DNA from: a bacterium
GTDB lineage: Bacteria; Myxococcota; UBA727; JAUIJE01
Reading direction: 5' to 3'
Length of the DNA stretch: 64,000 nucleotides
Assembly (NCBI GenBank): GCA_030431455.1
Contig: JAUIJE010000002.1
Location: 193,294-257,293 of the forward strand
The notes beneath the pieces are model-generated. The model saw nothing but the letters and a program-made list of their open reading frames with translations. It was not told where the DNA came from and ran no database searches. Within the stretch, counting starts at the first letter, position 1; every line of letters begins with the position of its first letter. Shown one piece after another: positions 5,718 through 28,712 of the stretch. The position numbers were made by a program, and so were the translations under genes.

Positions 5718-6571
5718 GCCCCGCCCCGCTGACGGTACAAGGCGTGGCCCGGTTGCGGGCCTGGGACCACGGGGGCGAGGGCCTGCCCCTGGTGCTTTTC
5801 CTACACGGCTTTTTGGACACCGGGCGCAGCTTCGACGACGTGTGCGCGCCCCTGTTGGGCCGGGCGCGGTGCGTGGCCCTCGATTGGCGCGGGCACGGGC
5901 AGAGCCAGATGGCGGGCCCGGGGGCGAGCTTTCATCTGCTCGACCACGTCAAGGACCTGACCTTGGCCCTCGAAGACCTCGAGGACCGCTTTGGGAAGTT
6001 GGCCCTGCTGGTCGGGCACTCCCTGGGCGGCAACACCGCGCTGCTCTATGCAGGGGCATTGCCAGACCGGGTGCCGCGGCTGTTGCTCCTCGATGCGCTG
6101 GGGCCGCCGGCCGAGGACCCGAGCGAACAGCCCGAACGGTTGGGCCACATGCTCGCCTTGCTGTCCGCCAAAAAACCGTTCGCCGTGGTGGCGGACAAGG
6201 ACGAAGCCATCGCCCGGCTGATGCGCAACAACCGCGGCCTGACCGCGACCGGGGCCGAACGCATGGTGCGCCACGCGTTGGTGCCACGAGAGGACGGCGG
6301 CTGGGCATTCCCGTTCGCGCGGGACCTGCGGGGGCCGAACCCGGTGCGCCACCCCGAGGAGATGTGGCTCACCCTGTGCGCGCGGGTCACCGCACGCACC
6401 GTCGTCGTGCGCGCCACGAATGGGTACGTGCCCGAGGGCGATCCCATTCCCGGCCGCATCGCCGCGTTGGGCGCGACGATGTTGACCTGGGACGCGCCCC
6501 ATCACGTGCACGTCGAGCAGCCGGACAATGTCGCCCAGCTGATCGGTACGATGCTCGACGCCGGCGCGTAA
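5714..6571 (+). CDS. Alpha/beta-hydrolase fold protein
   Basis: It contains the nucleophile-elbow motif GHSLGG and an HGF oxyanion motif. The GTG start overlaps the rtcR stop (GTGA) and follows the RBS AGGAGG, which indicates translational coupling with rtcR. Confidence 0.8.
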   Translation: MSPAPLTVQGVARLRAWDHGGEGLPLVLFLHGFLDTGRSFDDVCAPLLGRARCVALDWRGHGQSQMAGPGASFHLLDHVKDLTLALEDLEDRFGKLALLVGHSLGGNTALLYAGALPDRVPRLLLLDALGPPAEDPSEQPERLGHMLALLSAKKPFAVVADKDEAIARLMRNNRGLTATGAERMVRHALVPREDGGWAFPFARDLRGPNPVRHPEEMWLTLCARVTARTVVVRATNGYVPEGDPIPGRIAALGATMLTWDAPHHVHVEQPDNVAQLIGTMLDAGA

Positions 6572-6908
6572 CAGATCTTCACACGACGTCGTGCACGACG
6601 GTCAAACGACCGACGTGGGCTGCGCCACTGCACTGTGCACACGTTTTTTGTCGCGGGTGTTCGCGGGTGTGCGTTTTTCTGACGATCGGTGAGTGTGCCC
6701 ACCGTCGTCGATCATTCACGCTTCTGGTTCGATTCGTTGTTCGTCACAAATCTGTGCGGCGCACACCCCGCAACCTGGATCAAATCCACCGCACGCGGTC
6801 GGGCAAAACGTCTCAGGTGTGTCCGGGGGGAAACACTTTTGTCTCATGACACATCAAAAATCCGTCGGTCCGGTCTCGATCGCGGATGCGGACGCAGGCC
6901 CGCGGGGC

Positions 6909-6925
6909 TGGCACAGCCCGTGCTT
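6909..6925 (+). promoter_or_regulatory. Sigma54 (RpoN) promoter with -24/-12 elements
   Basis: The sequence is TGGCACAGCCCGTGCTT. GG sits at 6910..6911 and GC at 6922..6923, which gives the canonical 12-nt spacing and matches TGGCAC-N5-TTGCW at the conserved positions. It lies ~45 bp upstream of a small ORF that has a strong RBS. Confidence 0.55.
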
Positions 6926-6968
6926 AATCTGGGGGTGCGAACACAACCCGATCACCGGGAGGCTCATC

Positions 6969-7091
6969 ATGCGCAACTCTGAAAAGGTCAAAAACCTCAA
7001 GCAACCTGAGGACCTTCTCGAGGCGTATCAATGGTTGGCCTCGCACCTCGGGCTCGGCCAGGTCAAAAAGCCCGCCGCGGTCCGCGGCTGA
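6969..7091 (+). CDS. Small 40-aa protein (MRNSEKVKNLKQPEDLLEAYQWLASHLGLGQVKKPAAVRG)
   Basis: The RBS GGGAGG lies 8 nt upstream of the ATG. The gene sits between the sigma54 promoter and the FHA-EBP gene. Its local GC is lower than its surroundings. Confidence 0.4.
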   Translation: MRNSEKVKNLKQPEDLLEAYQWLASHLGLGQVKKPAAVRG

Positions 7092-7141
7092 TTTCCGCCG
7101 CTCGCCCGAGCGTCCGCCCAAAGCCCTGACCCGACTGTGTT

Positions 7142-8554
7142 ATGCCTGTCGCGGTGAGCCGCGGCACCCTCGCCAACCTACGAGGCACCATCGTCACCGA
7201 CCACGCGTCGGGGACCCCGGTGGTGCGCACCTACCGCTTGGTGGTGAGCGACGGCCCGGACCAGGGCAAAGAGCACGTGCTCGAGCTCGGCACCACCTTG
7301 GTGGGCAGCCATCCCTCGACGGACTTTGTGCTCACCGACCCGCGGGTGTCGCGCCGGCACTGCGAGCTGCGGGTGGTCGCCGACGGTGTCCAGGTTCGGG
7401 ACCTGGGCAGCAAAAACGGCATCTTCGTCGGCCGGGTCAAGGTCGAGCAAGCGGTGTTGCTCCCCGGGGCCAAGCTGCGGCTCGGCGACACCAAAATCGC
7501 GGTGCACAACCTCGACGCGTCGGTGGAGGTGGGAGACCTCGCCACCTTCGGCGACCTGCGCACCGAGAGCCCGGCGATGAAATCGGTGTTCGGCCTTCTG
7601 TCCCGGGCCTCGACCTCGGACGCGACCATTCTCCTCGAGGGCGAGACGGGGGTGGGCAAGGACGTGCTCGCGCGCACCATCCACGCGCAGAGCCACCGGG
7701 CCAAAGGGCCGCTGGTGGTGTTCGACTGCAGCGCGGTGTCCGAGTCGCTGATCGCGGGGGAGCTGTTTGGGCACAAAAAGGGCGCGTTCACCGGGGCGAC
7801 CACCGACCGGGCGGGGGTGTTCGAGGAGGCCGCGGGGGGTACGGTGTTCCTCGACGAGGTGGGCGAGCTCAGCCTCGACCTTCAGCCAATGCTGTTGCGT
7901 GCCCTGGAGAACCGCCAGGTGCGCCGGGTGGGCGAAGCCAAGAGCCGGGACATCGACGTGCGGGTGGTGGCGGCCACCAACCGGGACCTGATGGCCGAGG
8001 TCAAAGCCGGGCGGTTTCGCCAGGACCTCTTTTACCGGCTCGCCATCGTCAAGGTCTCGGTCCCGCCCTTGCGGGAGCGCAAGGCGGACCTGCCCTTGTT
8101 GGCCAAGGTGCTGCTCGAGCGGCTCGGCCTGTCCGGCGACGTGCTCACCCGGTCGGACATGCGCGCGCTCACCGCCTACGACTGGCCCGGCAACGTGCGC
8201 GAGCTCAAGAACATGCTCGAACAGTCCATGGCCTTGTCCGACGAGCACGAGTTCGTGCTCCTCGGTCCCCGGGGGGCGAACGAGCCGGGCCCGCCCACCG
8301 CCGTCGACGAGGACGGTGACGACGACGATTTTGGTGAGGGCGAAAACACCATGACCGGGGTGGGCGGCCCCCTCGACGTCAAAAAGCCTTACAAAGAGGC
8401 CCGCGAAGATGTGCTCCGCTCGTTCGAGCAGCGCTACATCGAGTCGTTGCTCAAGGCCCACGACGGCAATGTGTCGGCCGCGGCCCGGGCCGCGGGCATC
8501 GACCGCAATTACGTCTACCGGCTGATGAAGCGGTTCGGCATCGAAAAGCCCTGA
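7142..8554 (+). CDS. Sigma54-dependent transcriptional activator with an N-terminal FHA domain
   Basis: It has an FHA domain (CELRVVADGVQVRDLGSKNGIFVG), an AAA+ domain (GETGVGKD, GAFTGA, the ESELFGH-like ELFGHKKG) and a C-terminal Fis-type HTH. Confidence 0.9.
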   Translation: MPVAVSRGTLANLRGTIVTDHASGTPVVRTYRLVVSDGPDQGKEHVLELGTTLVGSHPSTDFVLTDPRVSRRHCELRVVADGVQVRDLGSKNGIFVGRVKVEQAVLLPGAKLRLGDTKIAVHNLDASVEVGDLATFGDLRTESPAMKSVFGLLSRASTSDATILLEGETGVGKDVLARTIHAQSHRAKGPLVVFDCSAVSESLIAGELFGHKKGAFTGATTDRAGVFEEAAGGTVFLDEVGELSLDLQPMLLRALENRQVRRVGEAKSRDIDVRVVAATNRDLMAEVKAGRFRQDLFYRLAIVKVSVPPLRERKADLPLLAKVLLERLGLSGDVLTRSDMRALTAYDWPGNVRELKNMLEQSMALSDEHEFVLLGPRGANEPGPPTAVDEDGDDDDFGEGENTMTGVGGPLDVKKPYKEAREDVLRSFEQRYIESLLKAHDGNVSAAARAAGIDRNYVYRLMKRFGIEKP

Positions 8555-15684: not shown

Positions 15685-18600
15685 CTAGTCAGCGCCCCAG
15701 CAGGCGACCTCGCCGTTGAATCTGAGTCCGCATGTGTGATGGGCGCCGGCCGCGACGTCCTTGAACGGACCCGGCGGAGAGTCGTTTTCGCCGTACCTCG
15801 CTTCGGCAGAGCCCCAGCATTCAATTTCGTTGTTGACTCTGAGGCCGCAGTGCCGGGATGCCCCGACCGCTCCCACGACTTTTTTGAATGCGCCAGGCGG
15901 GGAGTACGTTGAAGAGGCAGAGGCGCCCTGAAAACACTTCACTGTGTTGTTGGGCAGTGTGCCACAGACCACCAATCCCACGGTCGCTACCTTGACAAAG
16001 GGCCCTTCGGACGCGGGCACGTATGAGGGGACGTACGGCGACACCCCTCCCCAACAGACGATGGCGCCGTCAAACTCGTGCACCGCGCAACCCACGCCCG
16101 AGGCAACGCTGACATCATCGTAGATGAGGTCGGGCGGTCCCCCTCCCGAAGTCCAGCCTTTGCATTCCAACGTGCCGTCGTTTCGCAACGCGCAGGCGCC
16201 GAAATCGGAGGCAGCCAACTTCGTCACTCCGCCGGCGGCGCTGAACGGAGGGAGCGTCTTGCCCCAGCATTCGACCCCGTTTCCACGGTATCCGCAGGTG
16301 CGATTCGCGCTAATCGCCAATTGGTAGTAGCTGAGCCACGGCGCGGGACCTCCGTAGCCGGGGTCGGCCCCCCAACACCGAACGGTTCCGTCCGTTGTGA
16401 TCCCACACGTCCGGCTGCCCGCGGCTTCAATTGAGCGAAACCGGACCGGGGGCGGGCTGGACTGTCCTGCGATCACATCGTTCCAACAGACCAACCGGCC
16501 AGTTGTTCCCGGGGCACGGGCGCACGCGAGCCCTGCCCCCACTCGCGGCCCGTAGAGCCGCTCGTCGGGGACGTTCTTCTCAATGCCCGTTTTCGTACGC
16601 CCCCAACACGTGATCGACCCCTGGTCGTTCGTCGCACATCCCTTCTCTTCACGAAACGCGAAATCGATAAACGTTCCTGCTGGAGCAGACAAACTCGGCG
16701 CCGTGAACGGGCCCCAACAGGCAACGTTTCCGTCCACGGTGAGACCGCACTGGTGCTCATCACTGGTGTCTAGGCTAACGATTGTGGTGTTTGGCCACTC
16801 CCCAGCGAAGTCGGCGGCGCCTGGACCCCAACACTCCCAAAGTCCTTGGGAGAGGCCACAAACGTGGTTCGGGCCCGCGTCCAGATCCATAAACAGTGTT
16901 GTTGGTGCGTAGTCGATAACGCCCCAACAGGTCGTGGTCCCGTCGAGCGCGAGTGAGCAGGTGTACCGGTCGCCCGCTACAAGTCGGCCGTTGAGGTCAG
17001 GTGGCGGCGAGGCCTGACCCTCGTTGTCCGCTCCCCAGCAGTGGACTTCCCCGGCAACGTCGTTTCCACAGAAATGCCCCATGCCCGTCACGATTGATGT
17101 CAGGTAGATCGTGGATAGCTCTGGGAAGTACTGCACATAGGCTGATTCACCCCAATACATGCAAATTGGCTGTCCGTTGACCAGCGTGCAAACTCGCTCG
17201 CCTCTGACATCAAAGCTTGAAAATCCTTCGCACCCGTCGTTGTTTGGACAACACATGGGTCCGTTCGGCCCCTCGATACACAGACCACCATCGGTGCAAG
17301 GGTTTGGAGCGCAGCTTTCGAGTTTACAAGCAGCACTGCACCCATCGCCGTCAACAAGGTTTCCGTCGTCACATTGTTCTAGTCCCGCCTCGACGCCATC
17401 ACCGCAGTTTTCGACGACGCATGTGTCACTGCACCCGTCGCCGGAGGTGGTGTTTCCATCGTCACAGGACTCCAGAACGTTGTTTACAATCCCGTCGCCG
17501 CAGAACTCTATTTTACAGGTGGGGCCGCAACCGTCGTTTGGAAGGTCGTTTCCATCGTCACACTCCTCACCAGGGTTGCCAATCTCGTTGCCACAGAACT
17601 CGACGGTGCAGGTAGAGCTGCACCCGTCCACGGATACGGTGTTTCCGTCATCGCACTCTTCAGACACGTTGTTGGTGATGCCGTCGCCGCAGTATTCAAT
17701 CACACACGAAGCCGAGCACCCGTCTCCGTTCACGAGGTTGCCGTCATCACAACCTTCGGGTGAACTTAGAACGCCGTCGCCGCAGCCTTCGACCAAGCAC
17801 TCCGATGAACACCCATCGCCGTTGGTCGCATTTCCATCGTCGCAAACCTCTGCGCCCCCGTCGTTGAGGAGGCCATCCCCACAAACCTCCGCCTGACAAC
17901 TCGCATCGCAACCGTCACCAGAGATGGTGTTGCCATCGTCACATTCTTCTTCCGTGTTGTTCACGACCTCATCGCCGCAGAACTCAATTTTGCAGACGGC
18001 GCTGCAACCGTACCCACCCCAGAAGGAAGCATCGTCGCATTCTTCGTTGCGGTCGTTCGTGATCCCGTCGCCACAGAACTCGATTACGCAGTCTTCGGCG
18101 CAACCGTCACCAGACAGTGTGTTTCCGTCATCGCATCCTTCGCCGTTGTTCTTGACGCCATCTCCACAGAACTCAACAGCACAGTTGAAGCATCCATCTC
18201 CCGGGGCCGTGTTTCCATCATCGCAAGCCTCTCCGTTTTGGATGACCCCGTCACCACAAACGGCGGTTTCGATGCCGCAGCTGCTGCTGCAACCGTCCCC
18301 ATCCAACGCGTTCCCGTCGTCGCACGCCTCAGTTCCGCCGTTGTTCACAACACCATCGCCACAGAACTCCACAACGCAGGTTGAATCACAACCGTCCCCA
18401 GCAACAACATTGCCGTCATCACAAGCTTCGGTCCCGCCGTTGTTCACAACGCCGTCCCCGCAGTACTCCGTCACGCACAGCTCATCGCAACCATCGCCTG
18501 GGACCGCATTTCCATCATCACAGGTCTCCGTCGCGTTGTTGACTTCACCATCTCCACAGAACTCGATGACACAGATGTCACTGCAGCCGTCGTTGGCGAT

Positions 18601-21600
18601 CGCGTTGCCATCGTCACACTGCTCGCCGACGTTGTTGACCAGACCGTCGCCGCAATACTCCACCACACAAGTGGACGCGCAACCGTCGCCGTCCTGAGCG
18701 TTGCCATCGTCACAGACTTCCCCGTTGTTCACGACGCCGTCGCCACAGAACTCGACCACGCAGGCCGCACTGCACCCGTCACCGTTCATGGCGTTCCCGT
18801 CGTCGCAGCCTTCTCCGTTGTTGACGATCCCGTCGCCACACACTTCGAGTCCGCACGTAGCGGAACAACCATCGCCGCTCACCGTGTTCCCATCATCACA
18901 GGCCTCAGCACCCGAGTTGTTCACCACCCCGTCACCACAGACCTCAACTACGCAAGCAGCCGTACAACCGTCGCCGCTCACCGTGTTCCCGTCGTCACAG
19001 GCCTCAGCACCCGAGTTGTTCACAACCCCGTCGCCGCAAACCTCGACCACGCAGGTCGCAGTACAACCGTCGCCGCTCACCGTGTTCCCGTCGTCACAGC
19101 CTTCGCCGTTGTTCACCGCGCCGTCACCACAGAACTCCACCTCACAAGCGGCGCTGCAACCGTCCCCCGAAACCACGTTGCCGTCGTCACAGCCTTCGCC
19201 GTTATTGACGACGCCGTCGCCACACACTTCAAGCCCACACCCTGCCGAACAGCCGTCACCGCTCACCGTGTTTCCGTCGTCGCAAGCCTCGGCACCAGAG
19301 TTGTTCACAACCCCGTCGCCACAGACCTCGACCGCACAAGCAGCCGTACAACCATCACCGTTGGCGGTGTTCCCGTCGTCACAGGCCTCACCATTGTTGA
19401 CCGTGCCGTCACCGCAGAACTCGACCACACAGGCAGCGCTGCAGCCGTCGCCCGAGACCACGTTTCCGTCATCACAGCCTTCACCGTTGTTCACGATCCC
19501 ATCGCCACACACTTCGAGCACGCAGGCTGCCGAACAACCATCGCCGCTCACCGCGTTCCCGTCATCGCAGGCCTCAGAGCCCGAGTTGTTCACAACCCCG
19601 TCACCACAGACCTCGACCACACATGCCGCGGTACATCCATCACCGTTCGTGCTGTTCCCGTCGTCACAAGCCTCGGTACCGGAGTTGTTCACAACCCCAT
19701 CGCCACAGACCTCGATGACGCACGCGGCAGTACAGCCGTCACCGCCTACCGTGTTGCCGTCATCACAAGCCTCAGCACCGGAGTTATTCACAGCCCCGTC
19801 GCCACAGACCTCGACCACGCACGTAGCCGTACAACCATCGCCGCTCACCGCGTTCCCGTCATCGCAGGCCTCACCATTGTTGACCGTGCCGTCACCGCAG
19901 AACTCAACCACACACGCCGCGCTGCAGCCATCGCCGCTCACCGTGTTCCCGTCGTCGCAGCCTTCGCCATTGTTGACCGTGCCGTCACCACAGAACTCAG
20001 AAACGCAGGAAGCGCTGCAACCGTCACCTGAAACAACGTTGCCGTCGTCACAACCCTCGCCGTTGTTCACGACCCCATCGCCGCACACTTCGAGCGCACA
20101 CGTTGCCGAGCAACCGTCCCCGTTCACCGTGTTCCCGTCGTCACAGCCTTCGCCGTTGTTCACCGCGCCGTCACCACAGAACTCCACCTCACAAGCGGCG
20201 CTGCAACCGTCCCCCGAAACCACGTTGCCGTCGTCGCAACCTTCACCGTTGTTCACGACCCCATCGCCACACACCTCTAGCGCACATGCAGCGGAGCATC
20301 CGTCGCCGTTCGCGACGTTCCCATCGTCGCAAGCCTCATTGCCAGAGTTGTTCACAACCCCATCGCCACAAACCTCGATGACGCACGCGGCAGTACAGCC
20401 GTCGCCGCTCACCGTGTTCCCGTCGTCACAGCCCTCACCGTTGTTCACAACCCCATCGCCACACACCTCGAGCGCACAGGTCGGTGAACAGCCATCGCCG
20501 CTGACCGTGTTTCCGTCGTCACAGGCTTCGGCACCTGCGTTGTTCACAACCCCGTCGCCACACACCTCTAGCGCACATGCAGCGGAGCATCCGTCGCCGT
20601 TCGCGACGTTCCCGTCGTCGCAAGCCTCATTGCCAGAGTTGTTCACAACCCCATCGCCACAAGCCTCGATGACGCACGCGGCAGTACAGCCATCGCCACT
20701 CACCGTGTTCCCGTCGTCGCAGGCCTCGGCACCAGAGTTATTCACAACCCCGTCGCCACAAACCTCGACCACACAAGCAGCCGTACAACCATCGCCGCTC
20801 ACCGTGTTCCCGTCGTCGCAGGCCTCACCATTGTTGACCGTTCCATCACCGCAGAACTCCGAAACGCAGGAAGCGCTGCAGCCGTCACCTGAAACCACGT
20901 TTCCGTCGTCACAGCCCTCACCGTTGTTCACAATCCCATCGCCGCACACTTCAAGCGCGCACGTCGCTGAACAGCCGTCACCGTTCGCGGTATTTCCGTC
21001 GTCGCAAGCCTCAGCACCAGAGTTATTCACAGCCCCGTCGCCGCAAACCTCCAGCACACACGCCGCCGTACAACCATCACCGCTCACCGTGTTCCCGTCA
21101 TCGCAGGCCTCGCCATTGTTGACCGTTCCATCACCGCAGAACTCCGAAACGCAGGAATCGCTGCAACCGTCGCCGGAAACCACATTTCCGTCGTCGCAAC
21201 CCTCACCGTTGTTCACAACCCCGTCGCCACAAACCTCGACCACACACGAAGCGCTGCAACCATCGCCGCTCACCGTGTTCCCGTCATCGCACGCTTCCCC
21301 GTTGTTCACCGCGCCGTCGCCGCAGAACTCGACCAAACACGCCGTGCTGCAACCGTCGCCTGAAACAACGTTCCCATCATCACAGCCTTCGCCGTTGTTC
21401 ACGATGCCATCGCCGCACACTTCGAGCGCACACGTCGCCGAGCAACCGTCCCCGCTCACCGTGTTCCCGTCGTCGCACGCTTCGCCGTTGTTCACCGCGC
21501 CGTCGCCACAAAACTCGACCACACAGGCCGCGCTGCAGCCGTCGCCCGAGACAACGTTCCCGTCGTCACAGCCTTCGCCGTTGTTGACGATCCCATCGCC

Positions 21601-23019
21601 ACACACTTCGAGCACGCAGGCTGCCGAACAACCATCGCCGCTCACCGTGTTGCCATCGTCGCAAGCCTCGGCACCGGAGTTGTTCACCACACCATCGCCG
21701 CAAACCTCGACCACGCACGTCGCCGAGCAACCGTCCCCGTTCAAGGTGTTCCCGTCGTCGCACGCTTCCCCATTGTTCACCGTGCCATCGCCACAGAACT
21801 CGACCACGCAGGCCGCACTGCAACCGTCACCGTTCACGGTGTTCCCGTCGTCACAGCCTTCGCCGTTGTTGACGACGCCGTCGCCACACACCTCGAGCTG
21901 ACAGGCCGTGCTGCAACCGTCGCCGTTGATGGTGTTGCCGTCGTCGCAGGCCTCGGCGCCGTCGTTGTTGACCACGCCGTCGCCGCAGAACTCCAACATG
22001 CAGCCGGCGTTGCAGCCGTCGCCCGCGTCGGTGTTGCCGTCGTCGCAGGCTTCGCCGCTGTCCACCGTTCCGTCGCCGCAGACCGCTTCGACAAGACACG
22101 CGGCCGAGCAGCCGTCGCCGTCGACCACGTTGCCGTCGTCGCACTCTTCGCCGGCGTCGACGTTGCCGTCGCCGCAGGCAGGCTCGATGGTGCAGGTGGC
22201 CGAACAGCCGTCGCCGTCAATGAGGTTGCCGTCGTCGCATTGTTCGCTGGCTTGCACGATGCCGTCGCCGCAGGCGCTGGGCTCGTCGTTGTAGGTGATG
22301 AACAACCGGGGGGTGTAGTAGGTCGAGTCCCACGCGTAGACGCGGGCTTCGCCGCCGAGGGCTTCGTCTTGGAGGCGGATCAGCCAGCCGTGGTGGTTGG
22401 CGGGATCGGCGGCGGCCACGGCGACGTCGGGGGTGACATCGAAGCTGAGCACGCCGTTGGTGCCGTTGGTGAGGTGTACGCTGTCGGTGGGCGCGGCGGC
22501 GTGGGGGTACGGCGGGTTGTTGAGCGACCATTCGTCCTCGGGGGCGCAGTTGAGGCCGCCGTTGTAGACGTTGGTGTCGTTGGCGCAGTTGAAGGTCGCG
22601 TTGTGCTCGACCCACGGCTGCAACATGCGGTGGATCTCGATGGGTTGGCCGCCGGTGGGCAGGTTGCGGGCGTTGCGGCGGAAGATGAAGTCGAGGCGGG
22701 CGGAGACCAGCTGTTTGCCCTGCAGCGACGTGGCCATGTCGTCGGCGTCAAACTTGATCACCGCTTTGTAGCCGCCGCCGTTGCTTTGGATGAAGAGGAT
22801 CTCGTTCCAGCCGAAGTTCTTGTTGGCTTTGTTGCCACCGCGAAGGTGGGTGTCGCCGATGGGCAACAGCTGGATCTCATGGGTCACTGCCGCGCGGTCA
22901 CGTGCCGAGGGCACCGCGTCGACGTCGAGGACCGCGCTGTCCGCGCAGGCGTTGGCCAAAAGAGTGAAGGAGGCCAACACGCTCGCGCGGGCGGCGAGCG
23001 ACAGCTCAAACTTGTGCAT
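15685..23019 (-). CDS. Giant secreted protein (2444 aa). The N-terminal domain is followed by ~60 tandem myxobacterial Cys-rich repeats (CGDGxVNxGExCDDGN...GDGCSxxC) and a C-terminal RCC1-like beta-propeller.
   Basis: It has a signal peptide. The repeat unit is ~28 aa and carries six Cys. The C-terminus has RCC1/BLIP-II-like repeats (CWG...HTCGL). The opposite-strand P/S-rich ORFs such as 18701..21901 are artefacts of the symmetric repeats. Confidence 0.92.
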   Translation of the reverse strand: MHKFELSLAARASVLASFTLLANACADSAVLDVDAVPSARDRAAVTHEIQLLPIGDTHLRGGNKANKNFGWNEILFIQSNGGGYKAVIKFDADDMATSLQGKQLVSARLDFIFRRNARNLPTGGQPIEIHRMLQPWVEHNATFNCANDTNVYNGGLNCAPEDEWSLNNPPYPHAAAPTDSVHLTNGTNGVLSFDVTPDVAVAAADPANHHGWLIRLQDEALGGEARVYAWDSTYYTPRLFITYNDEPSACGDGIVQASEQCDDGNLIDGDGCSATCTIEPACGDGNVDAGEECDDGNVVDGDGCSAACLVEAVCGDGTVDSGEACDDGNTDAGDGCNAGCMLEFCGDGVVNNDGAEACDDGNTINGDGCSTACQLEVCGDGVVNNGEGCDDGNTVNGDGCSAACVVEFCGDGTVNNGEACDDGNTLNGDGCSATCVVEVCGDGVVNNSGAEACDDGNTVSGDGCSAACVLEVCGDGIVNNGEGCDDGNVVSGDGCSAACVVEFCGDGAVNNGEACDDGNTVSGDGCSATCALEVCGDGIVNNGEGCDDGNVVSGDGCSTACLVEFCGDGAVNNGEACDDGNTVSGDGCSASCVVEVCGDGVVNNGEGCDDGNVVSGDGCSDSCVSEFCGDGTVNNGEACDDGNTVSGDGCTAACVLEVCGDGAVNNSGAEACDDGNTANGDGCSATCALEVCGDGIVNNGEGCDDGNVVSGDGCSASCVSEFCGDGTVNNGEACDDGNTVSGDGCTAACVVEVCGDGVVNNSGAEACDDGNTVSGDGCTAACVIEACGDGVVNNSGNEACDDGNVANGDGCSAACALEVCGDGVVNNAGAEACDDGNTVSGDGCSPTCALEVCGDGVVNNGEGCDDGNTVSGDGCTAACVIEVCGDGVVNNSGNEACDDGNVANGDGCSAACALEVCGDGVVNNGEGCDDGNVVSGDGCSAACEVEFCGDGAVNNGEGCDDGNTVNGDGCSATCALEVCGDGVVNNGEGCDDGNVVSGDGCSASCVSEFCGDGTVNNGEGCDDGNTVSGDGCSAACVVEFCGDGTVNNGEACDDGNAVSGDGCTATCVVEVCGDGAVNNSGAEACDDGNTVGGDGCTAACVIEVCGDGVVNNSGTEACDDGNSTNGDGCTAACVVEVCGDGVVNNSGSEACDDGNAVSGDGCSAACVLEVCGDGIVNNGEGCDDGNVVSGDGCSAACVVEFCGDGTVNNGEACDDGNTANGDGCTAACAVEVCGDGVVNNSGAEACDDGNTVSGDGCSAGCGLEVCGDGVVNNGEGCDDGNVVSGDGCSAACEVEFCGDGAVNNGEGCDDGNTVSGDGCTATCVVEVCGDGVVNNSGAEACDDGNTVSGDGCTAACVVEVCGDGVVNNSGAEACDDGNTVSGDGCSATCGLEVCGDGIVNNGEGCDDGNAMNGDGCSAACVVEFCGDGVVNNGEVCDDGNAQDGDGCASTCVVEYCGDGLVNNVGEQCDDGNAIANDGCSDICVIEFCGDGEVNNATETCDDGNAVPGDGCDELCVTEYCGDGVVNNGGTEACDDGNVVAGDGCDSTCVVEFCGDGVVNNGGTEACDDGNALDGDGCSSSCGIETAVCGDGVIQNGEACDDGNTAPGDGCFNCAVEFCGDGVKNNGEGCDDGNTLSGDGCAEDCVIEFCGDGITNDRNEECDDASFWGGYGCSAVCKIEFCGDEVVNNTEEECDDGNTISGDGCDASCQAEVCGDGLLNDGGAEVCDDGNATNGDGCSSECLVEGCGDGVLSSPEGCDDGNLVNGDGCSASCVIEYCGDGITNNVSEECDDGNTVSVDGCSSTCTVEFCGNEIGNPGEECDDGNDLPNDGCGPTCKIEFCGDGIVNNVLESCDDGNTTSGDGCSDTCVVENCGDGVEAGLEQCDDGNLVDGDGCSAACKLESCAPNPCTDGGLCIEGPNGPMCCPNNDGCEGFSSFDVRGERVCTLVNGQPICMYWGESAYVQYFPELSTIYLTSIVTGMGHFCGNDVAGEVHCWGADNEGQASPPPDLNGRLVAGDRYTCSLALDGTTTCWGVIDYAPTTLFMDLDAGPNHVCGLSQGLWECWGPGAADFAGEWPNTTIVSLDTSDEHQCGLTVDGNVACWGPFTAPSLSAPAGTFIDFAFREEKGCATNDQGSITCWGRTKTGIEKNVPDERLYGPRVGAGLACARAPGTTGRLVCWNDVIAGQSSPPPVRFRSIEAAGSRTCGITTDGTVRCWGADPGYGGPAPWLSYYQLAISANRTCGYRGNGVECWGKTLPPFSAAGGVTKLAASDFGACALRNDGTLECKGWTSGGGPPDLIYDDVSVASGVGCAVHEFDGAIVCWGGVSPYVPSYVPASEGPFVKVATVGLVVCGTLPNNTVKCFQGASASSTYSPPGAFKKVVGAVGASRHCGLRVNNEIECWGSAEARYGENDSPPGPFKDVAAGAHHTCGLRFNGEVACWGAD
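17470..22270. repeat. Nucleotide-level tandem repeats (~84 bp) encoding the Cys-rich repeat array within the giant gene
   Basis: There are dozens of near-identical units. Blocks such as gtgttcccgtcgtcacagccttcgccgttgtt recur. Confidence 0.8.
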
Positions 23020-24015: not shown

Positions 24016-24127
24016 ACGCTCTTGGGTTGATATGGTGACAAGCGCCGGCCCGAAGGTCGGCGTTTTGTTTTTGTGGCCTGTCGCGTTTGTTCAATCCCTG
24101 TCGGCCGCGGCCTGGTATCCCTTTCGC

Positions 24128-24520
24128 ATGAACGCGACCGGACCCTTCGACGTCAAGATGAACTTCACCCCGCCCTTCGCCGCCCACGAGGGGGTGGAGC
24201 TGTCACGGGCCACCGGAGACAAGCGCTTCACCGGGGTGCTCGAGGCCGAAAGCCAAGTGCACATGCTCGCGGTCAAGACCCCGGTCGAGGGGTCGGCCGC
24301 GTACGTCGCGGTCGAGCAGATCGTGGGCACCCTCGACGGGCGCGCGGGCAGCTTCGCCGTGACCCACGTGGCCTCGATGGGCGCCGCCGGGCCGCAGATG
24401 TCGCTGTCCATCGTGCCCGACTCGGGCACCGGCGAGCTCACCGGCATCACCGGGTCGATGGCCATCCGCATCGTCGACAAGCAACACCACTACGACATCG
24501 ACTGGAACTTGCCGGGCTGA
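24128..24520 (+). CDS. DUF3224-like small protein
   Basis: 130 aa. The N-terminal style MNATGPFDVKMNFTP is typical of DUF3224. The start was chosen by that family architecture rather than by an RBS. Confidence 0.55.
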   Translation: MNATGPFDVKMNFTPPFAAHEGVELSRATGDKRFTGVLEAESQVHMLAVKTPVEGSAAYVAVEQIVGTLDGRAGSFAVTHVASMGAAGPQMSLSIVPDSGTGELTGITGSMAIRIVDKQHHYDIDWNLPG

Positions 24521-24527
24521 GCGCGCG

Positions 24528-25979
24528 CTATTCCCGCACGTCACACCGGAGCAAGAAGCCCGGCCGGCACGGGTCGTACACCCCGACGTAGGTCTGGTCC
24601 GCCCAACAATCGCAGCAGCAATACTTGTCGTAGGTGTACTGCGCGTTCGCGGGGCATTCGGTCTGCGTGCACCCGACGACGTCCGCGTCACAAAAGAACC
24701 CCTCGATGCAGCCTGATTCGCCCCCGCACGGGGTGGGGTCGGCGACGGCGTACGCCGGGCACGGCTCGTCGTCGCATTCGTGCCCGAGCCCGTCGTTGTC
24801 CGAGTCCACCTGGTCGGGGTTGTACACCCCCGGGCAGTTGTCGGTGAGGTCGAACACCCCGTCGCCGTCGATGTCGTCGGCGAACTGGGTGCGGTCCTTT
24901 TCACAGTAGACGAGCACGTGTTCGTAACGTTTTTGCCCTGTGCGCTCCGCCTGCAGGTTGACCGGTTGGCCGAGCACAAACTCGCGCCATATCTCGCCCG
25001 AACGGATGTCGCGCAGGCCGAACTCGTCGTCGATGGCCCCGAGCGGGAGGTCCACGGTGGTGCTGCGCCCGGCCTCTTCCATCGTGGTCAGGACCTGCGG
25101 GGTCGTGACGTAGATTTGGTTGCGGATGACGTAGTCGGCGCCCACCTTGGCGAGGTGCGCGCTGTGCGCAATGTTGTTGCGCTCGCCCACGGGTCCCTCG
25201 GCCCGGTCCGCGAGCAGGAACACCACCTCGTGTCCGCTGTCCACTTTTGCCTTCATCGCGTCCAGGGCGGCCGCGTCCACCGGGGTGCCGGGCGGAAAGT
25301 CGTAACAAGGCTCGAAGTAGATGTTCAAAATCGTCTGCAGCGAGCGCGCGGAGAAGTTGCGGCTCGAGCTTTGGAGCGCGTCGGTGCTGCACACCTCGAG
25401 CTCCTCGAGCCCGATGTCGGTCACCTGCGAGACGTCCTCGAGGCTGCGCCCGCGCACCCCGCGCCAAGACTCGAACAAGCGGTCGCGGGTGCCGGCGTGG
25501 CAGTTTTTGCCCACCACCTTGACGGAAAAGCCCTCGATGGTGCCCACCGCGCCCCCCTCCGCGTCGACCACGAACAGGTGGTGGTCGTCATAGAACGCAT
25601 CGAGGTCGTCGCCCGGCTGCTCGAACAGCTTGAGCTCGGTGCCCTCCAGCAGCCCGGGCACGGGGATGCGCAATGTCACCGGACGGGAAAAGCGCAGGCC
25701 GTGCGGCTCGAGCTTCACCCCCGCGAACACGTCGAGCTCGGCGAGGTCGGGAAAGACCAAGGGCGTGACCGTGACCGCGGTGTCCTCTTCGAGCGCGCCC
25801 GCGGGGATGTCGAGCAACAGGCCAGTGGGCAGTTCGATCACCGCGCCCTCGGCGGCGGTCACCGTCACCGTCTCGGCCGCGTCCTCGTCGAGGGTGATGG
25901 TCGGCCCGAGCCCACACGCGGTCGGGTCACATGCGGCGAAGGCGAAGAGCGGCCAGAGCGTACGCGCGATTTTGCCCAT
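24528..25979 (-). CDS. Lipoprotein with thrombospondin type-3 (Ca-binding) repeats and a conserved Cys-rich C-terminal module
   Basis: It has a lipobox (LFAFAAC) and TSP3 motifs (DIDGDGVFDLTDNCPGVYNPDQVDSDNDGLGHECD). The C-terminal ~90 aa are ~75% identical to the C-terminus of the next gene. Confidence 0.8.
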   Translation of the reverse strand: MGKIARTLWPLFAFAACDPTACGLGPTITLDEDAAETVTVTAAEGAVIELPTGLLLDIPAGALEEDTAVTVTPLVFPDLAELDVFAGVKLEPHGLRFSRPVTLRIPVPGLLEGTELKLFEQPGDDLDAFYDDHHLFVVDAEGGAVGTIEGFSVKVVGKNCHAGTRDRLFESWRGVRGRSLEDVSQVTDIGLEELEVCSTDALQSSSRNFSARSLQTILNIYFEPCYDFPPGTPVDAAALDAMKAKVDSGHEVVFLLADRAEGPVGERNNIAHSAHLAKVGADYVIRNQIYVTTPQVLTTMEEAGRSTTVDLPLGAIDDEFGLRDIRSGEIWREFVLGQPVNLQAERTGQKRYEHVLVYCEKDRTQFADDIDGDGVFDLTDNCPGVYNPDQVDSDNDGLGHECDDEPCPAYAVADPTPCGGESGCIEGFFCDADVVGCTQTECPANAQYTYDKYCCCDCWADQTYVGVYDPCRPGFLLRCDVRE

Positions 25980-27502
25980 CAGCGCACCTCGCAGCGCAGC
26001 AGGAAGCCCGGCCGGCATGGGTCATAGACATTGCGGTAGGTCTGGTCCGCCCAACAATCACAGCAACAATATTTGTCGAAGGTGTACGAGGCGTTGTCGG
26101 GGCACATCTCCTGGGTGCAGCCCGCGACCTGGGGGTCACAGAAGAACCCTTCGATGCAGCCGCTCGGCCCCCCGCACGCGCCGGTCACCTCTTCGTATTC
26201 GGGACAAGCGGTGTCGTCGCACTCGTTGCCGAGGCCGTCCCCGTCGGAGTCGATCTGGTCGGGGTTGGCCACCGCCGGGCAGTTGTCGACGTCGCTGTCG
26301 ATGCCGTCCCCGTCGGGGTCCGACTCTTGGCAGTAGGCGCCGTGCGCGGCCACCGCCGGGTCGGGCCGGGTGCTCGGTGGCCCGCCGGCTTTGTAGCGGT
26401 AGATTTGGCGTGACGCGTAGCGGGCGTCGGGGGCGCCCGGCCACCACGCGCCGAAGTAGTAGGGTGCGTCGATGGCCGCGTCGAACAGCCCGCTGTGGTT
26501 GTCGGCGTTGCGCACGGTGATCGCGCCGCCGTCGTTGTCCAAGACCTCGGCCACGTGACCGGCCGCCCGCACCCCCTCGTCGTCGGGGGCGCTGAAATAG
26601 AACACCAGGTCGCCGGGGCGGGCCGCGCCGTCGTCGGTGACCGGCTCGATGAGGTCGGCGGCGAGCAGCGCGGTGAGCAGGCGCGGGGCCGAGCCGTTCC
26701 AGGGCCGGCCTTGGTTGACCCCGCGGGTCACGTAGCCCGCGCAGTTGAACGCCGATGTGGCTTGCCCCGCGAACACCGCGTCGTCGGTCACGTAGGTGCC
26801 GCCGCCGGCGGCGACCTGCTCGGCCAGCCGGGCGCGTTCGTCCTCGTCCACGGTCTCGATGAACGTCTCGCGCCCCTCGATGAACACCTCTTGTTCGACG
26901 TTGTCCCCGTCCAGCACCGTGACGGGGCTGCCGTCGGGGCGCAGCAACACCTGGCGGCGGGTGCACGACGCGGGACCCCGCGGTGCCTGGTAGGTGGGCG
27001 GGTCCCGGCGGGCGTGTTCGTAGACCTCGACGGTGGTGTAGTGGCCGTCTTTGTCGATGTCCGCGCGCTCGAGCACGAGGATGTGCTCCACCGCCGCGGC
27101 GGGGAACTTGCTGTGCGGGCCGTCGCCATAGGCGAACGCGGCGTCGCGCAAATAGGGGATAGCGGCGTCATCGTCGCGTTCGGCCAGGGCGAAGGCGAGC
27201 ACCATCAGGCTCATTTCGGTGTGCACGGTGTCGTCGGTGACGTCGGCGGACAGGCCGGCGAGGGCTTCACCCAGCGCGGCGGTGGTGCCGTCTGCGCCCT
27301 GGACCAGGGTGTCCAGGTCCTCGATCACCACCGGGATGCGGGCCTGGACCCCCCGCATCGAGCCGCTGGCGGTGAGCAGGGGCTCGACCACCGCCGGGTC
27401 CTGCACGTGTTCGATCGCGGCTTGGACCTCGGCGGGCACCGCGCTGGGGCAGCCCGCGAGCAAGGTCGTCGCAGCAAAGAAAATCACGTGTGTCTTCGGC
27501 AT
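25979..27502 (-). CDS. Lipoprotein with a CHAP/NlpC-P60-like domain, TSP3 repeats and the same Cys-rich C-terminal module
   Basis: It has a lipobox (LLAGC) and a CHAP-like Cys/His pair (AFNCAGYV ... GHVAEV). The TSP3 repeats read DPDGDGIDSDVDNCPAVANPDQIDSDGDG. Its C-terminus is shared with the 24528..25979 gene. Confidence 0.8.
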   Translation of the reverse strand: MPKTHVIFFAATTLLAGCPSAVPAEVQAAIEHVQDPAVVEPLLTASGSMRGVQARIPVVIEDLDTLVQGADGTTAALGEALAGLSADVTDDTVHTEMSLMVLAFALAERDDDAAIPYLRDAAFAYGDGPHSKFPAAAVEHILVLERADIDKDGHYTTVEVYEHARRDPPTYQAPRGPASCTRRQVLLRPDGSPVTVLDGDNVEQEVFIEGRETFIETVDEDERARLAEQVAAGGGTYVTDDAVFAGQATSAFNCAGYVTRGVNQGRPWNGSAPRLLTALLAADLIEPVTDDGAARPGDLVFYFSAPDDEGVRAAGHVAEVLDNDGGAITVRNADNHSGLFDAAIDAPYYFGAWWPGAPDARYASRQIYRYKAGGPPSTRPDPAVAAHGAYCQESDPDGDGIDSDVDNCPAVANPDQIDSDGDGLGNECDDTACPEYEEVTGACGGPSGCIEGFFCDPQVAGCTQEMCPDNASYTFDKYCCCDCWADQTYRNVYDPCRPGFLLRCEVR

Positions 27503-27581: not shown

Positions 27582-28196
27582 ATGCGCGCGATGGTGCTCG
27601 GTCCGGTCTTGTTGTTCACCGCTTGTGGGTTTGCCCCCGACGACGAACGCGGGCGCGTGTTCCCCGCGCCGGCGGAGCGGCCGGCCACGGTGGGCGGCGC
27701 GTCCGAGGTGGACGCCCGCTTCGTCGGCACCTGGGTCGTCGACCAGCCCGGGCATGCGCTCTACGAGGCCAGTGTGTACGAGTTTCGCGCCGACGGGGCC
27801 CTCGCCCTGCTGGGCAGCTTCTCGTTCGACCAGCCGATGGAGGGCTACCAGACCGGCCAGGTCGCGGTCTCCGACGACAGCTGCGGCGACTGGTACTGCG
27901 AAGACGTCAAGTTTGTGTGCGGCTTTGGCCAGCAATGGGCGGCGCCCGATTCAGACACATTGTTGATTCAGAGCCCCTGCGACGATGGCGTGACCCGCGA
28001 CGTGGAGCTCTCGTTCACCGACGACGCGAGCGCCAACAGCCAAGGCCAGACCACGGTGATCATCGAGCGCGTGGGCGAACACGACGACGCGTTCCACTGG
28101 GGCCCGGACTGGCGGTTCGTCAAGTGCCTCGACGACAACGGCGCGGCGTTGACCGATCATTGGGCCTGCGAGCAGCCCGTGTTCGAGGGCCAATAA
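27582..28196 (+). CDS. Lipoprotein, hypothetical
   Basis: It has a signal peptide with a lipobox (LLFTAC) and is 204 aa. Confidence 0.6.
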   Translation: MRAMVLGPVLLFTACGFAPDDERGRVFPAPAERPATVGGASEVDARFVGTWVVDQPGHALYEASVYEFRADGALALLGSFSFDQPMEGYQTGQVAVSDDSCGDWYCEDVKFVCGFGQQWAAPDSDTLLIQSPCDDGVTRDVELSFTDDASANSQGQTTVIIERVGEHDDAFHWGPDWRFVKCLDDNGAALTDHWACEQPVFEGQ

Positions 28197-28199
28197 CGC

Positions 28200-28712
28200 T
28201 CAGCCTTCGCGAGGACAGGTGCAGGCGTCGCCCTCCGGGGTGAAGCCGCAGCCCTCGTCACAGGTTTGCATCAGGCGGTGCCGCAGGGTGCGGGTGCCGG
28301 ACGCGACCGCCCCGGCGTCGCACGCGCTGAGCACGTCGGTGTGCAGCAACACGGTGAAGTCGCCGCTGCGGTGCTTGACCAGCTCGGCCCGGTCGCGGAC
28401 CACGCAGCCCTGCTCCACCCGGTTGGTGCCCGCCCCGTCGATCTCCAGGGTGCGCCGCTCCCAGTGCGTGACCTCGTAGCGGTGGTCGTGGGTGTGCTCG
28501 ACGTTGGTGCGCATCGGCATCCACAATGTCAATGTATCTTTCGCGGGGTCGACGTCGATTTCGCCCCGCCGCGACCCGCTGACCCGCAGCACGTCCTCGG
28601 CCGGCCCTTGCGCCTGCACGAGCTCGATCTCATACACCCCGCGCGCGACCACCGGCTCCGAGCCGCCACAAGCCACGCCCCACAATGCCAACGACATGAG
28701 TACCCAACGCAT
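28200..28712 (-). CDS. Lipoprotein, hypothetical (170 aa)
   Basis: A signal peptide with a lipobox (LWGVAC) is visible only from the internal Met. The upstream part of the ORF-track call is low complexity and is rejected. Confidence 0.55.
   Translation of the reverse strand: MRWVLMSLALWGVACGGSEPVVARGVYEIELVQAQGPAEDVLRVSGSRRGEIDVDPAKDTLTLWMPMRTNVEHTHDHRYEVTHWERRTLEIDGAGTNRVEQGCVVRDRAELVKHRSGDFTVLLHTDVLSACDAGAVASGTRTLRHRLMQTCDEGCGFTPEGDACTCPREG

Follow-up and report, generated by a model that had tools for sequence, protein, structure and literature searches.

Two adjacent lipoproteins of a Myxococcota genome share a twelve-cysteine C-terminal domain behind unrelated heads

What purpose is served by a strongly conserved cysteine-rich C-terminus on two neighbouring lipoproteins whose heads have no sequence in common? 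The question is raised by a pair of genes in a 64-kb window of ~68% GC from a Myxococcota genome (assembly GCA_030431455.1, contig JAUIJE010000002.1, positions 193,294 to 257,293), the window being the whole stretch of DNA analyzed here. Gene B (25979..27502, minus strand) encodes a 507-residue lipoprotein (P0001) and gene A (24528..25979, minus strand) a 483-residue lipoprotein (P0008), and together they form a two-gene operon whose products have unrelated heads but a common C-terminal domain. Both open reading frames (ORFs) have the codon bias of real genes, with a GC content at third codon positions (GC3) of about 0.9 (0.90 for B), and proteins identical to A and B are present in public assemblies. 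The ORF of A can be extended to an in-frame upstream ATG at 26018 (24528..26018, minus strand). However, we favor Met-14 of this longer frame, at 25979, as the start, since it has a GAGG sequence 7 nt upstream, lies in a TGATG overlap with the B stop codon, and is the start shared by the public gene calls that yield P0008. At this junction the B stop and the A start overlap by one base (25977..25981, minus strand, as read in the sequence), and thus the pair is predicted to be translationally coupled. Lipoboxes were recognized in both proteins by motif inspection only, using the pattern [LVI][ASTVI][GAS]C. The signal peptide of B spans residues 1–18 (27449..27502, minus strand), with the lipobox LLAG↓C at residues 14–18, and that of A spans residues 1–17 (25929..25979, minus strand), with FAFAA↓C ending at Cys17.

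An initial annotation, made from the letters of the window, had described adjacent lipoproteins with a common Cys-rich C-terminus, and protein comparison bears this out. BLASTP aligned residues 370–495 of A, numbered in the ORF from 26018, to residues 389–507 of B with 83 of 126 positions identical (66%, E = 1e-53), so the similarity persists on proper protein alignment. The tail was the sole significant segment in this comparison, and the heads showed no sequence similarity. Identity rises to 75% when only the 75–77 residues of the Cys-rich part are compared, and the motifs CGG.SGCIEGFFCD, CCCDCWADQTY and VYDPCRPGFLLRC are found in A and B alike. The 119 codons common to the two genes have 72% nucleotide identity, and the same codon is used at 56 of the 83 identical residues and a different one at the other 27. 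Thus, it is the protein sequence that has been conserved, and the tails did not arise by recent copying of DNA. The same nucleotide identity and codon differences led us to reject recent gene conversion between them. Searches of the 64-kb window by tblastn and with a hidden Markov model (HMM) revealed no copy of the module beyond those in A and B.

The conserved tail is a discrete module with 12 cysteines that follows a thrombospondin type-3 (TSP3) repeat. It comprises residues 407–483 of A (24531..24761, minus strand) and residues 433–507 of B (25982..26206, minus strand). No family in Pfam-A or NCBIfam covers the tail, and a profile built from 40 module sequences matched nothing among the PDB sequences at E ≤ 10. 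AlphaFold2 modeled the module confidently from the 40-sequence alignment as a small β-rich domain, with a mean predicted local distance difference test score (pLDDT) of 94.7 and 70 of 76 residues at or above 90. A Foldseek comparison of this model with the PDB gave a best match of E = 0.74 and TM-scores of no more than 0.31. The tail therefore matches no known domain family and no solved structure; it is a new domain, although its architectural role is a familiar one.

The module consensus, C-P-x8-C-x5-C-x5-C-x6-C-x4-C-P-x10-CCC-x-C-W-x11-P-C-R-x6-C, indicates how the cysteines are used. Their number is even in all 40 aligned modules (10, 12, 14 or 16), and losses occur in pairs: Cys12 and Cys24 (module numbering) are jointly absent in four sequences, and Cys49 or Cys50 is absent together with Cys52 in four. 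Module variants that bear insertions likewise gain cysteines in even numbers. These even counts and pairwise losses, taken with the export signal, point to an extracytoplasmic domain held by six disulfides rather than to a metal site.

Next, we searched 1.84 billion cluster representatives with HMMER, using a two-sequence module profile (E ≤ 1e-3). Forty proteins were found, and the module lies at the extreme C-terminus in 39 of them, followed by 0–10 residues. Word-index homologue searches added further members, to give a total of about 45 proteins; a word-index search with the 75-residue module itself was a false negative, since an identical protein is present in the collection, and short Cys-rich queries are vulnerable in this respect. 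The exception among the 40 is P0149, in which a divergent module sits directly behind the signal peptide and is followed by a Lys/Pro-rich linker, and P0151 (159 residues) consists of scarcely more than a divergent module. The domain is thus not always appended at the C-terminus. By motif inspection, an N-terminal lipobox is present in nearly all full-length members, and the heads that carry this module fall into at least five families without sequence relationship to one another. Hence the arrangement that had been put forward from the two genes, in which the head varies and the tail is conserved, extends well beyond the window.

The family is rare. Among 185,579 species, each represented by one genome, only eight module loci were present, all in metagenome-assembled genomes (MAGs) labeled Polyangiaceae, Myxococcales, Deltaproteobacteria, Desulfobulbia, Proteobacteria or simply "bacterium". 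One of these, a B-type member at 6375-8234 (plus strand) of locus L004, lies in a MAG of 46% GC labeled Desulfobulbia and is flanked by pheT, an FGE-sulfatase-family gene and putA. Therefore, either the family is not limited to high-GC Myxococcota bins or the label of this bin is unreliable.

Comparison of the modules across heads reveals that module similarity does not track head type. Subtypes defined by common indels cut across the head families: an "SSGGQGTG" insertion is found on A-, B- and C-type heads, and a long "CPAGG..CAC" insertion on A-, B-, D-type and other heads. The modules of A and B are mutual nearest relatives (74%), and share the substitutions GCTQ, DKYCCC and FFCD, which are not seen on orthologous A- and B-type heads elsewhere; those heads bear a different, commoner module sequence type. 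Two proteins with the same module subtype, P0140 and P0137, come from different samples. As subtypes cut across head types, a shared, shuffled domain is a fair description of the module. It may have moved between heads, been homogenized within lineages, or co-evolved with a lineage-specific partner, and the data do not separate the three.

The initial annotation had placed calcium-binding TSP3 motifs ahead of each tail. These motifs are real, but there is one unit per protein and not several. The repeat spans residues 395–430 of B (26213..26320, minus strand; Pfam TSP_3, PF02412, E = 1.6e-5, 24.9 bits) and residues 369–404 of A (24768..24875, minus strand; E = 4e-4, 20.4 bits), and the two align with each other; both scores are below the gathering cut-off of 25. 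A phmmer search aligned residues 390–431 of B with thrombospondin-2, COMP and TSP-1 at E-values of 5.6e-13 to 4e-9, the best being thrombospondin-2 and COMP, and the Asp-rich calcium-binding consensus NCP...NP.Q.D.D.DG.GD.CD is present. NCBIfam matches to MtsC, Omp28_seleno and TraB are confined to this repeat. TSP3 proteins of Myxococcota such as TraB and MtsC have the same calcium-binding unit, DxDxDGxxDxxDNCPxxxNPDQxDSDxDGxGxxCD, whereas A and B use a single repeat as a linker and lack a MYXO-CTERM or OmpA domain. Around one third of the module proteins have no TSP3 repeat and carry a Gly/Asp/Pro-rich low-complexity linker instead.

We then considered what the tail is attached to. The head of A consists of two domains, a ZU5-type β-sandwich (residues 36–157; 25509..25874, minus strand) and a papain-fold domain resembling thiol peptidases and amidases (residues 158–361; 24897..25508, minus strand; Cys160, His272, Asn287), both of which the initial annotation had overlooked. 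A dedicated search brought the head A family to seven sequences, and AlphaFold2 modeled the head with a pLDDT of 79.8 and a predicted TM-score (pTM) of 0.73. The model has the β-sandwich fold of ZU5 domains, followed by a domain in which the Cys lies at the N-terminus of a helix and the His on a β-strand, as in the papain fold (clan CA). Its matches include an endolysin, NlpC/P60 proteins and the type VI secretion system amidases Tse1 and Tae3.

The pair Phe151-Ser152 (25524..25529, minus strand) is invariant in all seven head A sequences and lies in the model between strands 121–128 and 131–135, the last two of the ZU5 domain. PIDD, FIIND and Nup98 cleave at (H/S)F↓S at this same site between the last two strands. 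In bacterial toxins and surface enzymes, ZU5 domains at the N-terminus have been described as auto-processing (PMC3482391). The ZU5 domain of A may therefore be a self-cleaving one, with Phe151↓Ser152 as the candidate site. The preceding residue is Gly in five of the seven sequences, His in one and Ser in one, so that the His of the HFS motif of the eukaryotic FIIND, PIDD and GAIN autoproteolytic domains is mostly missing from the family. A also differs from the ZU5-processed bacterial toxins and surface enzymes (PMC3482391) in being a small lipoprotein without RHS repeats, SpvB or a β-propeller. A 438-residue protein from Candidatus Krumholzibacteria (P0154) resembles head A in nothing but the ZU5-like N-terminal part, and has a canonical-looking SHF↓T motif; ZU5-headed lipoproteins therefore occur outside the module family.

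The head of B is divided into an N-terminal region (residues 19–179; 26966..27448, minus strand), possibly helical or HEAT-like and conserved in B- and D-type heads, and a putative thiol hydrolase domain of CHAP/NlpC-P60 type (residues 180–374; 26381..26965, minus strand). A weak HEAT_PBS match is found in the homologue P0018. A CHAP/NlpC-P60 signature had been noted from the outset in one of the two proteins, and B is the one concerned. Asn253-Cys254, His316 and Arg331 to Asp334 are invariant in 13 B homologues, giving the ordered Cys-His-polar arrangement (Cys254, His316, Asp334) expected of such enzymes, but the family matches in homologues are all sub-threshold. B itself matched no peptidase family in Pfam. 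Three homologues matched Pfam CHAP (PF05257) at E-values of 1e-4 to 1e-2 (16.6–23.1 bits, cut-off 26) and one matched NLPC_P60 (PF00877) at E = 0.008 (16.5 bits, cut-off 23), in each case across the Cys-to-His core and below the Pfam gathering threshold. In a phmmer search of the PDB with the head of the homologue P0024, the top two hits were NlpC/P60 hydrolases, which aligned at the catalytic Cys but with a non-significant E-value of about 0.17; FDCSGF of 6b8c (NLP/P60) aligns with FNCAGY of P0024. It is plausible, but not established, that B is a CHAP/NlpC-P60-like enzyme.

Comparison of head A with head B using hhalign gave only a low-probability local match near the His strand. The earlier statement that the two heads are unrelated holds for their sequences, which have no BLASTP match, but less so for their folds, since a papain fold is probably common to both. 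The D-type heads (P0010, P0011 and P0136) are homologous to B (hhalign probability of 96.5%, E = 8e-10, 265 columns). C-type heads (P0130-P0139) carry the pattern GNCREKA...HAVAIAC...DPW, which we judge by eye to mark another Cys-His-Asp enzyme. No family was assigned to E-type heads or to several singletons, and heads A, B/D, C and E were mutually undetectable in profile-profile comparison. A 576-residue metagenome protein, P0127, has a Cys-rich head with the motif CCRLHDYC and a weak Phospholip_A2_2 match (E = 0.017), which suggests that the tail can also carry a head of lipase type.

We propose, tentatively and with a confidence a little short of an even chance, that the heads are exported hydrolases that degrade envelope or matrix material, that the tail is their common targeting or docking module, and that A may be pre-cleaved in its ZU5 domain. 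The heads would be hydrolases resembling peptidoglycan amidases or peptidases, one relative being weakly phospholipase-A2-like, and through the tail these diverse enzymes would all be directed to a single common ligand or partner. The ZU5 domain of A may cut itself at Phe151↓Ser152, eight residues ahead of the catalytic Cys, and the enzyme and tail would then be held non-covalently on a lipid-anchored stub, ready for release or activation. Several results weigh against this proposal. Searches of Pfam-A, NCBIfam and the PDB show no resemblance of the module to known carbohydrate-binding, dockerin or sorting domains, and at 10 distinct loci no conserved immunity, scaffold or secretion gene adjoins the module genes. 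The CHAP/NlpC-P60 assignment of B lies below every curated threshold, and a profile of the B head has no meaningful match among the PDB sequences. Of the seven head A members, a single one has the His that precedes Phe-Ser in PIDD and Nup98.

The architecture is reminiscent of modular cell-wall hydrolases and endolysins, which combine an N-terminal CHAP or NlpC-P60 catalytic domain with a C-terminal wall-binding domain. However, the tail of A and B is unrelated to SH3b, LysM, CW_7 or other known binding domains, and A and B are lipoproteins of a Gram-negative MAG.

In an alternative that we regard as unlikely, a lineage-specific secretion or surface-display machinery recognizes the tail as a C-terminal domain for export or sorting, and the domain is perhaps removed afterwards. 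The C-terminal domain of type IX secretion and MYXO-CTERM are sorting tails of this kind. The placement of the module at the extreme C-terminus in 39 of 40 proteins, the diversity of the cargo and the narrow taxonomic range all agree with such a role, as does the tendency of module subtypes to track lineage rather than head, which would be expected from co-evolution with a machine. However, no secretion genes are linked at any locus examined, the tail has no similarity to known sorting domains, the proteins already bear a lipoprotein signal, and P0149 carries its divergent copy near the N-terminus.

To the targeting reading a bolder extension can be added, to which we likewise assign a low probability. 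The proteins would form an inverted polymorphic effector family of uncultured Myxococcota-like bacteria, with a conserved six-disulfide tail for delivery or receptor docking, N-terminal warheads swapped by recombination (several unrelated thiol peptidases or amidases and one weakly phospholipase-A2-like head), ZU5-primed release from the lipid anchor in some members such as A, and lineage-specific module subtype as the determinant of partner specificity. In the SitA polymorphic lipoprotein toxins of myxobacteria, the N-terminal escort domain is conserved, the C-terminal nuclease is polymorphic, and an immunity gene lies next to the toxin gene (PMC8546572, PMC5562445). SitA and the A/B proteins alike are lipoprotein-anchored, modular and effector-like, and occur in Myxococcota. 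In A and B, however, the order is inverted, with a variable N-terminal head and a conserved C-terminal module, the heads look envelope-directed, and no conserved immunity gene is present, including immediately downstream at the 10 distinct loci. The A/B family is thus at most like SitA and other polymorphic toxins and is no member of them, and the suggestion of a cassette system fails in its classical polymorphic-toxin sense, there being neither the domain order nor conserved immunity or cassette genes. Since there are no conserved neighbors, nothing in the genomes except the enzyme types themselves speaks for an antagonistic role, and the PADLOC defense models gave no match.

The tail could also be a dockerin-like module by which different enzymes attach to one scaffold or receptor, located on the surface or the vesicles of the producer, with lineage-specific pairing, which we hold to be quite unlikely. 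Cellulosomal enzymes have a variable catalytic head, a calcium-binding linker and a conserved small C-terminal module, and the head-linker-module architecture described here runs parallel to theirs. The lineage-specific substitutions common to the A and B modules would fit co-evolution with one partner. However, no candidate scaffold gene is linked, each locus has only one or two module proteins, and the module has no structural similarity to dockerins.

We consider it very unlikely that the tail acts intramolecularly on thiol peptidases, as an accessory domain for their stabilization, maturation or inhibition. Cys-His signatures are present in four of the five main head types, and the 12 cysteines placed after a protease recall RD21. 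Plant RD21-type papain-like proteases carry a 12-Cys granulin domain, and secreted bacterial peptidases carry the PPC (pre-peptidase C-terminal) domain; both are likewise small C-terminal domains on secreted peptidases. However, the module has no sequence or fold similarity to either, and its cysteine spacing (C-x9-C-x5-C-x5-C-x6-C-x4-C-x11-CCC-x-C-x12-C-x7-C) differs. No more probable is an ordinary lineage-specific duplication of housekeeping cell-wall-remodeling lipoproteins in which the tail plays no shared part in targeting: housekeeping enzymes often include NlpC/P60 lipoproteins, and the neighboring genes are housekeeping or unrelated, but the heads are not paralogous, the family is extremely rare and patchy (8 loci in 185,579 species genomes), and conservation is higher in the module than in the heads, between which it appears to have moved.

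Whatever its function, a well-defined and confidently modeled domain without known relatives enlarges the repertoire of bacterial extracellular modules, and it is tied here to enzymes that probably degrade envelopes, from a predatory lineage that is mostly uncultured. Should the tail prove to be a targeting, docking or export element, it would offer a handle on how lytic enzymes are deployed by these bacteria, and engineers could use it as a compact tag rich in disulfides. In A, the fusion of a ZU5 with a papain-fold domain is a compact candidate for the study of ZU5-type self-cleavage beside an active site. With roughly 45 proteins the family is tiny; it is a clean lead and overturns nothing.

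Finally, we examined the genes around A and B and around their relatives. The neighbors in the window are a DUF3224 gene, two orphan lipoproteins, an Exo_endo_phos protein, an acyl-CoA dehydrogenase and a protein with 51 DUF4215 repeats, and none of these recurs beside module genes elsewhere, the other loci lying amid housekeeping or unrelated genes. The flanks of related loci contain no additional module copy, and a tandem arrangement of modules was not found in them outside the lineage of the window. The gene beside P0137 (locus L015) encodes an unrelated multi-pass membrane protein. At two loci, L007 (8221-11259, minus strand) and L010 (6548-9472, minus strand), a lipoprotein of ~1000 residues lies downstream of the module gene and is 49% identical between the two MAGs; judged by eye, it resembles glycosidases of the GH31 type and ends in a starch-binding-like part. 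As it is absent from the window, its position is probably due to synteny of related MAGs.

Immediately upstream of B are two orphan lipoproteins, both Cys-containing: one of 204 residues at 27582-28196 (plus strand, lipobox LFTAC) and one of 170 residues at 28200-28712 (minus strand, lipobox WGVAC). Neither has a Pfam match or a homologue beside module genes at other loci, and they could be candidates for immunity or partner proteins. On the other side, the DUF3224 gene (24032-24520, plus strand) is convergent with A, the stop codons being 7 nt apart with no terminator-like hairpin between the two genes. Further along, 15685-23019 (minus strand) encodes a 2444-residue protein with the 51 repeats of DUF4215, a myxobacterial Cys-rich repeat, together with C-terminal RCC1 repeats and a weakly CBM96-like N-terminus. 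The codons of its DUF4215 repeats give rise to the strongly negative GC skew at 16–22 kb of the window.

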